Source: a virus (lineage: Duplodnaviria; Heunggongvirae; Uroviricota; Caudoviricetes). From it: a stretch of DNA of 64,000 bases. The position numbers and the translations under genes were made by a program. The notes below the pieces were generated by a model that saw only the letters and a list, made by a program, of their open reading frames with translations, was not told the DNA's origin and did no database searches. Location: positions 1-64,000 of the IMG/VR virus record IMGVR_UViG_2529292906_000009. The stretch is one strand, 5' to 3'. Shown in pieces: positions 28,385 through 31,028 of the stretch (positions are counted from its first letter, which is position 1; each line of letters starts with the position of its first letter).

Positions 28385-29359
28385 TTATCCGTTACCGCAC
28401 GACGGTTTCTGCGTGATAAACGTCTCAAGCATCTTTTCCGCAATTGCCGACCAGGTGTGACACTGGACCTTTTCAGCATTTTTCACGCGATCAACGCGAG
28501 CAATAACCTCATCCCAATCAATCCGCGACTTGATAACCATATGGTTCACCAAAGCCAGGCGATCTGGCGGAAGGCAATCGGGAGGCGTTAATACCAACGC
28601 CCCGCACATTGCCGCCTCAAGTACAGTTAATCCAAGGCTTTCGGGATGCGTAACGATAAAAACGTCACTCTTACGCAATTCAGCTGCAAATTCGGTTGCT
28701 GGCACCGGCGTCCGCCTGTATGGAGTTACCGAAATATTCCCCGGATCAATGGTAACCAATCCGTCATCAGTCAACGTTCTGGCCTCATACGGAACGGTCA
28801 GACGCTGAAGGTTCATAAGGATACTTAAGGAGTGATCAAAACCACTAACATCAAATGCAGCGTGGTCTACAAAAATACGCAGAACATCGTCCGTTTTGGT
28901 TTCCAGATGGAACAGCTCCTGATTCGCTGCCCATCCAACATGTTTGTTAAAGCGATTATGACGTTCTAACCGACCGGGATTATCCAGGTACCGCCAGGTA
29001 TCATCGCGGACAGTAAAAGTAATATCGACTGGTGCCGAATCCAGCATAGAACCGTCATATACCTGGGCTACCCATCCAGAGAATCGGCGACACAGTTGCA
29101 TGCCTATTTCCCTGGGTACCGTAGTAAAATACCTCAATCCTGGTGCCAAAATGGCCTTCGCAGAACATGCTGTCGCAGCAGTCAACACAGCTTCAACATA
29201 ATCCTCGGGGCTTTCGACGCCAGGGGAATATGGACGATGGTATTGCAATGTTACCCCAGCCTCACTAAAGGCGCAGGCCAGGTTGTAAGCCCACATTTCC
29301 GTATATGTTTTCACATCACTGATAGCTTCAAATTTTCGCCCAATGATCAGGATGTTCAT
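28385..29359 (-). CDS. GT-B fold glycosyltransferase (GT1/GT4-like)
   Basis: MNILIIG N-terminal Rossmann start and C-terminal HPESLGLTVLEAAMCGALVL motif; last gene of the ban operon. Confidence 0.55.
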   Translation of the reverse strand: MNILIIGRKFEAISDVKTYTEMWAYNLACAFSEAGVTLQYHRPYSPGVESPEDYVEAVLTAATACSAKAILAPGLRYFTTVPREIGMQLCRRFSGWVAQVYDGSMLDSAPVDITFTVRDDTWRYLDNPGRLERHNRFNKHVGWAANQELFHLETKTDDVLRIFVDHAAFDVSGFDHSLSILMNLQRLTVPYEARTLTDDGLVTIDPGNISVTPYRRTPVPATEFAAELRKSDVFIVTHPESLGLTVLEAAMCGALVLTPPDCLPPDRLALVNHMVIKSRIDWDEVIARVDRVKNAEKVQCHTWSAIAEKMLETFITQKPSCGNG

Positions 29360-29661
29360 TGCGTCTCCTTTTCCCTGACTAAAAGCTCATCCAGCTTGCT
29401 TTTATGTTTGAGCACATAGCCACATATTTTTCCTTTGGAGCTAATTTGCGGAATGGAATAATATTCCGAAAATACTAATTCAGCCTTTTCTAAGACAAGT
29501 GAAACACCATAGCGCGCAACATGTCTGTCGATCATTTTTGCATCACTGAGATTACCTTTAATTGATAGCCAGTCGTTGAGGTACATATGGTTGCGATTGG
29601 CTTTTTTCAGCATGTCGCTCAACCAATTTTTATTACGCTTAGTTAGTTTCCGTTGCATCAA
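29356..29661 (-). CDS. hypothetical protein (dbn position, downstream of ban)
   Basis: 101-aa ORF overlapping ban stop and glycosyltransferase start. Confidence 0.45.
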   Translation of the reverse strand: MMQRKLTKRNKNWLSDMLKKANRNHMYLNDWLSIKGNLSDAKMIDRHVARYGVSLVLEKAELVFSEYYSIPQISSKGKICGYVLKHKSKLDELLVREKETQ

Positions 29662-31028
29662 TAATCCTCTTGCCAGTCAGCACCAGCATAGTTATCAAAC
29701 CGTGAGTATTGGCCGTTAAAAGCCAATCTCACCGTGCCAATTGGGCCATTTCGTTGCTTACCGATAATCACCTCGGCAATGCCCTTCATTTCGCTATCCG
29801 GGTGATAAACTTCGTCGCGATACAGAAACATGATCAGGTCTGCGTCCTGCTCAATTGCTCCTGATTCACGTAAATCTGAATTTACCGGTCGTTTGTCCGC
29901 ACGCTGTTCAAGTGAACGATTAAGTTGTGACAATGCCACCACCGGTACTTGTAATTCCTTCGCCAAAGCCTTCAGTGAGCGAGAAATCTCGGCAATTTCC
30001 AGCGTTCGGTTATCTTGCAGCTCGGGGACGCGCATAAGTTGCAGGTAGTCGATCATAATCATGCTCAAACCACCATTTTCTTTATAAACACGACGAGCGC
30101 GGGAACGAAGCTCTGTAGGTGTCAGGGCGCTTGAGTCATCAATAAAAATATTTTGCTTGTCCAACAGAATCCCCATTGCGCCAGAAACCCGCGCCCAATC
30201 CTCGTCGTTAAGTTGCCCTGTTCGAATACGAGTCTGATCAACGCGTGCAAGAGAAGCCAGTGAGCGCATCATCAGCTGGTGGCTCGGCATCTCAAGGCTA
30301 AAAACCAATACGGGCTTATAGTTACGGACTGCGGCATTTTCGACGAGATTCATCGCAAACGTGGTCTTCCCCATAGATGGGCGGGCGGCGACAATGATGA
30401 GATCGGACGGCTGAAGCCCTGCCGTCTTCTTATTGAGATCGGTAAATCCCGTATCAAGCCCCGTTACACCATCATGTGGTCGCTGAAACAACTCTTCTAT
30501 GCGAGATACCGTTGCATCGAGAATGCTGGCGATATCTTTTGGACCACTACCGCTCTTTTGTCGTTTTTCAGCTATTTCAAAAACGCGGCGCTCGGCCATA
30601 TCCAGCAATTCATTGCTGCCCCTGCCATCCTGCGCATATCCAGCTTCGGCTATTTCATTTGCGACGGAAATCATTTCACGAACGACCGCGCGTTCACGAA
30701 CGATATCCGCATAAGCACAAATATTTGCCGCGCTGGGCGTGTTCTTTGACATCTCCGCAAGGTACGCAAAACCACCGGCGCGTTCTAATTTACCGTTCTG
30801 TTCAAGTGCTTCAGCAAGTGTTATCAAATCAATCGGTTTGCCATGACTTAATAACCTCTCCATCTCACTGAAAATTTCACGATGAGCACTGGTATAAAAA
30901 TCATCAGCAACTATACGATCTGCAACTTCATCCCAGCGGCAGTTATCAAGCATTAAGCCACCAAGTACAGCTTGTTCTGCACTAAGGGAATTTGGCATGG
31001 ATTCAAGAGGGGATGCAGACATTAGCAC
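29658..31028 (-). CDS. ban: replicative DNA helicase, DnaB analog
   Basis: Aligns along its length with E. coli DnaB (Walker A PSMGKTTF, conserved C-terminal block); corresponds to P1 ban. Confidence 0.9.
   Translation of the reverse strand: MLMSASPLESMPNSLSAEQAVLGGLMLDNCRWDEVADRIVADDFYTSAHREIFSEMERLLSHGKPIDLITLAEALEQNGKLERAGGFAYLAEMSKNTPSAANICAYADIVRERAVVREMISVANEIAEAGYAQDGRGSNELLDMAERRVFEIAEKRQKSGSGPKDIASILDATVSRIEELFQRPHDGVTGLDTGFTDLNKKTAGLQPSDLIIVAARPSMGKTTFAMNLVENAAVRNYKPVLVFSLEMPSHQLMMRSLASLARVDQTRIRTGQLNDEDWARVSGAMGILLDKQNIFIDDSSALTPTELRSRARRVYKENGGLSMIMIDYLQLMRVPELQDNRTLEIAEISRSLKALAKELQVPVVALSQLNRSLEQRADKRPVNSDLRESGAIEQDADLIMFLYRDEVYHPDSEMKGIAEVIIGKQRNGPIGTVRLAFNGQYSRFDNYAGADWQEDY

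Follow-up and report, generated by a model that had tools for sequence, protein, structure and literature searches.

The stretch of DNA analyzed here (the window) comprises 64,000 nucleotides, positions 1 to 64,000 of the virus record IMGVR_UViG_2529292906_000009, and sequence comparison identifies it as a P1-like phage-plasmid. The last gene of its ban operon, located at 28385..29359 on the minus strand, corresponds by sequence to dbn of P1 (YP_006544) and glt of P7 (AAQ07543), and its 324-residue product is predicted from its structural model to be a cytoplasmic GT-B glycosyltransferase resembling the GT4 family. The reading that we favor, with moderate confidence, is that Dbn acts together with the products of pmgO, pmgP, and pmgQ, that this set builds a short glycan on an acceptor other than DNA, and that dbn is read through from the replicative helicase gene ban. 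The window also carries, between ban and dbn, an intact open reading frame (ORF) of 100 residues that is reduced to a scar in P1 and P7.

The gene itself was already known, being an annotated P1 gene that is rediscovered here. Its name stands for “downstream of ban”; the P1 record NC_005856 lists it directly after ban as “function unknown, possible glycosyltransferase,” P7 calls it glt, and the RefSeq name of the product in RCS47 is “glycosyltransferase family 4 protein.” The preliminary description of this region, which supposed that P1 has no glycosyltransferase at this position, was therefore mistaken on this point. Dbn of the window is 98% identical to P1 Dbn over 324 residues and matches phrog_2518 with an E value of 2e-233 (profile positions 9-332). 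The gene is present in 471 plasmids of PLSDB, 436 of which hold a nearly full-length copy at 90-100% identity. It is indeed the conserved gene that follows ban in P1-like genomes; the known non-glycosyltransferase function that the preliminary description had considered for such a gene did not emerge, and no publication assigning Dbn a function was found. What is added here is the link between dbn and pmgO, pmgP, and pmgQ, a small helicase-coupled gene that reference P1 has lost, and a suggested start of P1 Dbn at Met9.

Fold and family of Dbn

The AlphaFold (AF2) model of Dbn, built from 63 homologs, has a predicted local distance difference test (pLDDT) score of 95.1 and a predicted template modeling (pTM) score of 0.90. 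It displays two Rossmann-like β/α/β domains, with the C-terminal helix crossing back onto the N-terminal domain. The GT-B signature reported in the preliminary description is thus borne out by the model and by structure comparison, which was made, as proposed there, against both the glucosyltransferases of T4 and those acting on lipopolysaccharide (LPS) and other glycans, and which placed Dbn nearer to GT4 enzymes. The comparison scores were 17.0-17.7 for WbnH, PglA-type enzymes, and WlaC, 16.5 for WaaB, and 15.2 for WaaG, versus 15.3 for the HY126 DNA arabinosyltransferase, 15.0 for the T4 alpha-glucosyltransferase, and 11.8 for the T4 beta-glucosyltransferase. The DNA-modifying enzymes of T4 and the arabinosyltransferases of the HY126/RB69 type rank under the GT4 enzymes of glycans, lipids, and small molecules in structural likeness to Dbn, and they need a hydroxylated-pyrimidine pathway, which P1-like genomes do not have in the regions examined. 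Among the closest known systems are the retaining GT-B enzymes of family GT4 (PimA, BshA, MshA, WaaG, and sucrose-phosphate synthase). The best match of the model in BFVD is a glycosyltransferase of Tupanvirus, with a template modeling (TM) score of 0.78-0.81.

At the sequence level, the segment E240-S-L-G-L-T-V-L-E248 forms an E-x7-E motif, the two glutamates of which are invariant in the 63 sequences, as is HPES-x-G-x3-LE in the same region. The match of the family profile to PDB entries is confined to this region, where it aligns with the motif of 8xsg and MshA. Some Dbn homologs in the databases carry a precomputed match to Pfam Glycos_transf_1 (PF00534), whereas NCBIfam returned noise-level matches only for Dbn, and the PADLOC models matched neither Dbn nor the 100-residue ORF. 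In total, 14 columns are invariant and 28 nearly invariant among homologs with identities down to 28%. Retaining-type chemistry is predicted. Dbn is nevertheless classified here as GT-B and GT4-like, and not as a proven GT4 member, because the N-terminal Gly-rich loop and the Arg/Lys pair of GT4 enzymes are not recognizable in its sequence or in the family-invariant columns, and because the family has invariant residues of its own (D102, W143-A144, D165-H166, and D175, together with a conserved FSDVW).

Dbn is acidic (isoelectric point [pI] of 5.5), with a negative net charge and no transmembrane segment. Its family is small, with 74 clusters among 5.8 billion proteins and two matches in 185,579 species genomes, and by this sequence census it is phage restricted. 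The gtrABC systems of O-antigen glucosylation comprise a GtrA flippase, the GT2 enzyme GtrB, and a membrane glycosyltransferase of the GT-C type, and are expressed from the prophage. Dbn differs in being a soluble GT-B protein encoded in a C1-repressed operon, and no Gtr-type neighbors of dbn are present among the ORFs or in the P1 annotation.

Association of dbn with pmgO, pmgP, and pmgQ

The candidate partner of Dbn is PmgQ (HdmD in P7; gene at 19891..20592, minus strand), a GT8-like protein of the GT-A type with an invariant DxD motif (D79-L-D81). It belongs to phrog_1962 (“glycosyltransferase”) and has weak profile matches to GT8 entries of the PDB, namely, 5gvv (E value of 4e-4) and 6mw5 (E value of 2e-3). 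The paralogs pmgO (21787..22449, minus strand) and pmgP (21263..21889, minus strand) encode MptE-like/Cst-II-like, that is, sialyltransferase-like, proteins: their match to the Pfam MptE-like family is below threshold, they belong to phrog_4603 (“alpha-2,3-sialyltransferase”), and their profile matches to Cst-II structures are weak (E value of 0.01). NCBIfam gave no match for PmgO, PmgP, or PmgQ. The three genes are labeled “putative morphogenetic” in P1, and all look glycosyltransferase-like.

The association of these genes with dbn is seen in phages distant from P1. In the coliphages IME392 and EP_H11, a Dbn homolog that is 47-48% identical is flanked by three genes, with those for the PmgO/PmgP homologs immediately upstream; in large metagenomic phages, where Dbn is 30-34% identical, a gene of 234 codons always comes next downstream. 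The flanking genes in both groups are homologs of those at 19891..22449 of the window, i.e., pmgO, pmgP, and pmgQ. A PmgQ-family gene lies directly downstream of Dbn in 17 of the 39 distinct non-P1 loci and within 1.5 kb in 3 more, while the most divergent Dbn branch has instead a PmgO/P-like gene approximately 780 bp upstream, with a pyruvyl transferase alongside. PmgQ is, moreover, present in every INPHARED record with Dbn (22/22). The divergent loci came from the metagenome scan, the scans of IMG/VR having given almost solely P1-like loci. The clusters of the large phages additionally encode a cupin fusion of an RfaE-II-like nucleotidyltransferase, GT8-like and GT47-like proteins, a methyltransferase, and a polysaccharide pyruvyl transferase.

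In P1, the order along the minus strand is dbn, a terminator, the baseplate/tail operon in the opposite orientation (genes 5, 6, 24, 7, 25, and 26), pmgL, pmgM, pmgN, pmgO, pmgP, ppp, and pmgQ, and both the dbn side and the pmg side are flanked by C1 operators. Judged from these sequences, dbn and pmgO/P/Q look like one phage-specific multiglycosyltransferase set that the baseplate operon interrupts in P1. The literature found mentions neither this link nor the lost helicase-linked gene. The multiglycosyltransferase clusters of the large phages and the virion-glycosylation genes of mycobacteriophages are similar in that glycosyltransferases of differing folds cluster together, sometimes with sugar-nucleotide enzymes. 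The P1 set differs in being divided between two operons.

Several further observations were made on these genes. The gene ppp (20589..21281), encoding a phosphatase of the lambda NinI type, is inserted between pmgP and pmgQ; in Citrobacter phage phiNP, the trio lacks ppp and is situated between terS and the genes for lysis. A DUF7217 protein of 235 residues (Pfam E value of 2e-79) is encoded at 3196..3903 in IME392 and EP_H11, just before the PmgO-, PmgP-, Dbn-, and PmgQ-like genes; no homolog of it is encoded in the window, and it could be either the acceptor or an additional member of the gene set. In one large metagenomic phage (9011..10426), the PmgQ-like gene and the next one, a member of an unannotated family of 255 residues, form a single gene with a product of 471 residues; the fusion suggests that this family works physically with the GT8-like enzyme. 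Homologs of PmgO with 32-42% identity are widespread, being found in D3-like siphophages, jumbo phages of Klebsiella and Serratia, Caulobacter phages, and Tetraselmis viruses. Their genes are often surrounded by head genes (examples are those of Pseudomonas phage D3, 5855..6388, and PAJU2, 7807..8331), and the PAJU2 and Eowyn records label them “structural protein.” The sialyltransferase-like PmgO proteins may therefore have a virion-related role.

Proposed role of the gene set and alternative explanations

We propose that Dbn would be produced upon derepression or infection, by read-through from ban and the 100-residue ORF, and that it would be the accessory GT-B member of a set with the GT8-like, DxD-containing PmgQ and the sialyltransferase-like PmgO/PmgP. 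Nucleotide sugars of the host would be the donors for a short glycan that this set assembles on an acceptor other than DNA. The leading candidates for the acceptor are a protein, of either phage or host, and a glycolipid of the LPS-core type on the cytoplasmic side of the inner membrane. The types of enzymes that are combined, the RfaE-like gene of the large-phage clusters, and the location of the PmgQ homolog beside the integrase gene of phage Chlobot favor the glycolipid; the late-operon placement in phiNP, the “structural protein” labels of PmgO homologs, and the nature of the PDB matches favor a protein, and neither candidate is preferred here. Plaque formation in the laboratory does not require the function. 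The identity of dbn, its fold and motif, the layout of the operon, the gene neighborhoods, and the published knockout phenotypes are shown, while a joint action with PmgQ/O/P, retaining catalysis, and the kind of acceptor are inferred.

A collection of 29 in-frame single-gene deletions of P1 includes those of dbn, pmgO, pmgP, pmgQ, and ppp (Gonzales et al. 2022, PMC9024508). No plaquing defect was seen for 24 of the 29, dbn among them, and antirestriction activity was unchanged in the systems assayed there (PMC9024508); the deletions of pmgO, pmgP, and pmgQ likewise left antirestriction unchanged and plaquing normal (PMC9024508). CRISPR interference also found dbn to be nonessential (PMC10695390). 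The missing phenotype of the single dbn and pmg deletions may reflect the assays used rather than the lack of a function.

The deletion of dbn without change in plaquing or antirestriction makes the glycosylation of DNA unlikely. The preliminary description had raised the possibility that Dbn modifies phage DNA bases against restriction, possibly with Dmt, and this is the least likely of the options considered, to the point of being hardly credible. The cotranscription with a replication gene, the vicinity of dmt, and the existence of multiglycosyltransferase clusters with sugar-nucleotide enzymes for DNA hypermodification (PMC13326640) would fit with it. Nonetheless, the functional tie to dmt goes no further than neighborhood, and the pmgO, pmgP, and pmgQ deletions agree with that of dbn. 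Pfam searches of the flanks of Dbn homologs retrieved no hydroxylase/hydroxymethylase of the thymidylate synthase type (ThyA), nor is there one in the P1 annotation of the regions examined; the acidic character of Dbn and its closer likeness to GT4 enzymes also argue against this role. Moreover, P1 DNA is cut normally by common restriction enzymes.

Several points weigh against the proposal that we favor. The match of Dbn itself to PF00534 reaches 25.1 bits versus a gathering cutoff of 26.4, and it covers residues 221-307, which is just the second half of the C-terminal domain. The unrecognizable Gly-rich loop and Arg/Lys pair leave room for an atypical donor binding, or the protein may even be inactive; its enzymatic activity is a prediction from sequence and model. 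The conserved neighborhood is an association and does not prove that the enzymes work in one pathway. A single clade of related large phages accounts for many of the adjacent pairs, so that the 17 loci represent about six independent lineages, and PmgQ and PmgO also occur without Dbn (for example, in JK004, phiNP, and D3-like phages). In P1, a distance of 6-8 kb separates dbn from pmgO-Q, which belong to another operon. Finally, words beginning with “glycos-” are absent from the P1 virion proteome paper and from the preprint on the cryo-electron microscopy of the tail and baseplate, the latter also lacking “glycan.”

Some of these points would also fit with Dbn being a decayed or noncatalytic GT-B protein, kept as a binder, a scaffold, or neutral cargo. 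The gene is dispensable in two independent screens, and the subthreshold Pfam match and the N-terminal loop and Arg/Lys pair that are not evident are what decay might leave. This explanation is nevertheless very improbable, given the number of invariant and nearly invariant columns, which include both glutamates of the E-x7-E motif, the retention of nearly full-length copies in the great majority of the dbn-carrying plasmids, and the conserved synteny with other glycosyltransferases.

Two more specific explanations concern the acceptor. According to one, which we regard as unlikely and which is of the surface-glycan kind also named in the preliminary description, Dbn and PmgQ/O/P jointly alter a glycan of the host envelope, be it the LPS core or a different one, and the new LPS hides the P1 receptor (the terminal core glucose), whereby superinfecting phage would be excluded or progeny would not be lost on cell debris. 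The nucleotidyltransferase resembling RfaE domain II in the large-phage clusters would fit with this, as would the lone PmgQ homolog of phage Chlobot, which lies between integrase and tail fiber genes in the classic position for lysogenic conversion, and the sigma-70 promoters predicted for dbn inside ban in the P1 record. However, with C1 operators on both operons, the genes should be off in lysogens, and the family is all but absent from bacterial genomes and hence from bacterial LPS loci. Dbn has no feature of membrane association and is negatively charged, and homologs are also found in lytic phages (IME392) and in large aquatic phages. P1 lysogens are also not known to block adsorption, which counts against this explanation.

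According to the other, also held to be unlikely, the set glycosylates virion or other phage proteins late in development, as in mycobacteriophages, with benefits that plaque assays would miss, such as particle stability, shielding from immune factors or proteases, and tuning of adsorption. This is consistent with a phage-restricted family that is found in lytic and temperate phages alike, with the two halves of the set flanking the P1 baseplate/tail operon, and with the late promoter LPpmgL ahead of the pmg block. The placement of the PmgP/PmgQ homologs of phiNP, which indicates a late operon, points in the same direction, as do the “structural protein” labels of PmgO homologs and their location among the head genes of D3-like phages. 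The nearest sequence matches in the PDB also extend protein-linked glycans, namely, GlyE (5gvv), the Skp1 galactosyltransferase (6mw5), and the A. minor glucosyltransferase (8xsg), although these matches are weak (E values of 1e-2 to 4e-4). Against it stand the silence of the virion proteome paper and of the preprint, and the fact that dbn belongs, like the helicase gene, to an early operon under C1 control.

Should Dbn and PmgQ/O/P prove to be one phage-restricted glycosylation system, the “pmg” and “dbn” genes, known in P1 for four decades, would have a single function in common. The genes dbn, pmgQ, pmgO, and pmgP deserve joint study as one glycosylation set, for which single deletions exist (Gonzales et al. 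2022). P1 is a model phage whose accessory genes largely lack assigned roles, and two inexpensive hypotheses are added here. P1-like phage-plasmids are common in clinical Escherichia coli, and glycosylation of the surface or the virion would, if true, be relevant to host range and to the interplay of phage and host.

The ban-dbn junction and the surrounding operon

Over positions 27500..32000, the window is 98-99% identical (megablast) to P1, P7, and other P1-like phages and is colinear with them, save for one segment of 288 nt. This segment (29360..29647) stands in place of 13 nt in P1 and P7. The 100-residue ORF (29356..29658, minus strand) encodes a basic protein (pI of 9.8) and is positioned for translational coupling to both of its neighbors: the stop codon TGA of ban (29660..29658) shares one base with its ATG (TGATG), and its own stop codon overlaps the ATG of dbn by four bases (ATGA). 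The stop/start overlaps of all three genes given in the preliminary description are thereby confirmed, as is the position of dbn at the end of the ban operon. Shine-Dalgarno-like sequences precede the ORF (GAGGA) and dbn (AAGGAG, 5 nt 5′ of the ATG), and no terminator-like sites were found between ban, the ORF, and dbn.

The P1 sequence ATGCAATGGAATGAGGAAAAGCCG-ATG retains the first (ATGCAA.GGAA) and last (GGAAAAG) codons of the ORF. This scar (NC_005856.1, 4860..4884, equivalent to 29359..29658 of the window) is translated in the P1 annotation as eight additional N-terminal residues of Dbn (MQWNEEKP), whereas dbn of the window starts at the family-conserved Met. The latter corresponds to Met9 of the annotated P1 Dbn and has its own Shine-Dalgarno sequence (GAGGA). 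The start of Dbn is therefore probably misannotated in P1 and P7 and should be moved to Met9.

The intact ORF was found in 52 of the 471 dbn-carrying plasmids of PLSDB and in 12 of the 116 distinct ban-dbn sequences taken from collections of viruses and metagenomes; a DNA search of the INPHARED phage records found none. Its product is a member of phrog_12809, and an exhaustive HMMER search retrieved six proteins, all unannotated. Homologs (34-47% identical) follow a Ban ortholog, with the same TGATG overlap, in two other elements related to P1, namely, Cronobacter phage JK004 (Ban 83% identical) and a 94-kb NCBI contig (Ban 76% identical). In neither is the small ORF followed by a glycosyltransferase gene, and JK004 has no Dbn homolog in its genome. 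Other homologs are situated amid early genes in Avunavirus and T5-like phages. The model of the product, built from four sequences, has a pLDDT of 81 and matched no known fold.

Since Ban orthologs elsewhere are followed by homologs that are coupled in the same manner, we conclude from sequence that the 100-residue ORF represents the ancestral state and is linked to the helicase gene, and that its interior was deleted in reference P1 and P7, where its end codons became fused to dbn. A tie of the ORF to the glycosyltransferase was rejected, given that its homologs adjoin helicases or early genes in phages without Dbn. An origin of the 288-nt segment from an insertion sequence was also rejected, as there are no repeats and no transposase, the ORF is conserved, and its homologs are equally coupled to orthologous ban genes. 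That the product loads or regulates Ban is speculation; its presence in natural P1-like phage-plasmids bears on Ban loading or regulation. The wider scenario, in which Dbn, PmgQ, and PmgO/P form an unrecognized phage-restricted glycosylation system, with genes that are adjoining in lytic and large aquatic phages and separated in P1, that acts on a virion protein or the LPS core during lytic growth, and in which the ORF also encodes a Ban accessory factor (loader, regulator, or inhibitor) that laboratory P1 has lost, is somewhat doubtful when taken as a whole.

The gene ban (29658..31022, minus strand) encodes a replicative helicase of the DnaB type, as identified by Pfam (DnaB and DnaB_C, E value of 1e-107), NCBIfam, and the P1 annotation. 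The position 31028 given earlier for its start is that of an upstream GTG, the ATG annotated in P1 lying two codons further in, at 31022. The operon ends at a bidirectional intrinsic terminator (28338..28364; GAAAAGCCCG-AACGC-CGGGCTTTTC followed by TT; −17.6 kcal/mol; z score of −4.3) that sits between the convergent dbn and gene 5. The position after ban, the convergence with gene 5, the terminator, and an operon under the C1 operator Op72 are all shared with P1 Dbn and P7 Glt; the intact ORF upstream of dbn sets the window apart from P1, where it is reduced to a scar.

The genes ban and dbn and the ORF between them make up just the distal portion of a longer operon that is controlled by C1 and starts at 33830..33857. 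At this position, two sites that fit the C1 operator consensus, one without a mismatch and the other with 2 mismatches, form the bivalent operator annotated in P1 as Oban/Op72 at the ban operon promoter, so the operon is expected to be repressed in the prophage state. The consensus has 13 sites in the window, versus 0.3 expected by chance. The operon also holds genes for tRNA-Asn, tRNA-Thr, and a tRNA with a CAT anticodon, as well as tci genes (ARAGORN and P1 annotation). The CAT-anticodon tRNA gene (trnI in P1; 31309..31384, minus strand) lies upstream of ban and was detected by ARAGORN and Rfam and is annotated in P1. Over 28000..34500, Rfam retrieved the three tRNAs and nothing else, the dicF-like region annotated in P1 being below the gathering score here.

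Within that dicF-like region, a strong terminator-like hairpin is found at 33648..33667 (minus strand; TGCCCATCTTCGGGTGGGCG followed by T8), approximately 170 nt downstream of the promoter/operator of the ban operon and ahead of the tRNA genes; it could act as a transcriptional attenuator for ban and dbn. Between ban and dmt (31629..33800), the window resembles P7 and the P1 isolate OP279344 rather than reference P1. The megablast alignment to NC_005856 ends at approximately 31628, so that the window has another allele of the tciA/terB and upl/plp region. In the P1-like contig IMGVR_UViG_2537562191_000038 (2731..4155), an insertion of approximately 1.4 kb, whose inspected frames hold no long ORF, is located near the 3′ end of ban, and two further P1-like contigs display apparent frameshifts at the end of this gene; these changes may be assembly errors or may reflect a decay of ban.

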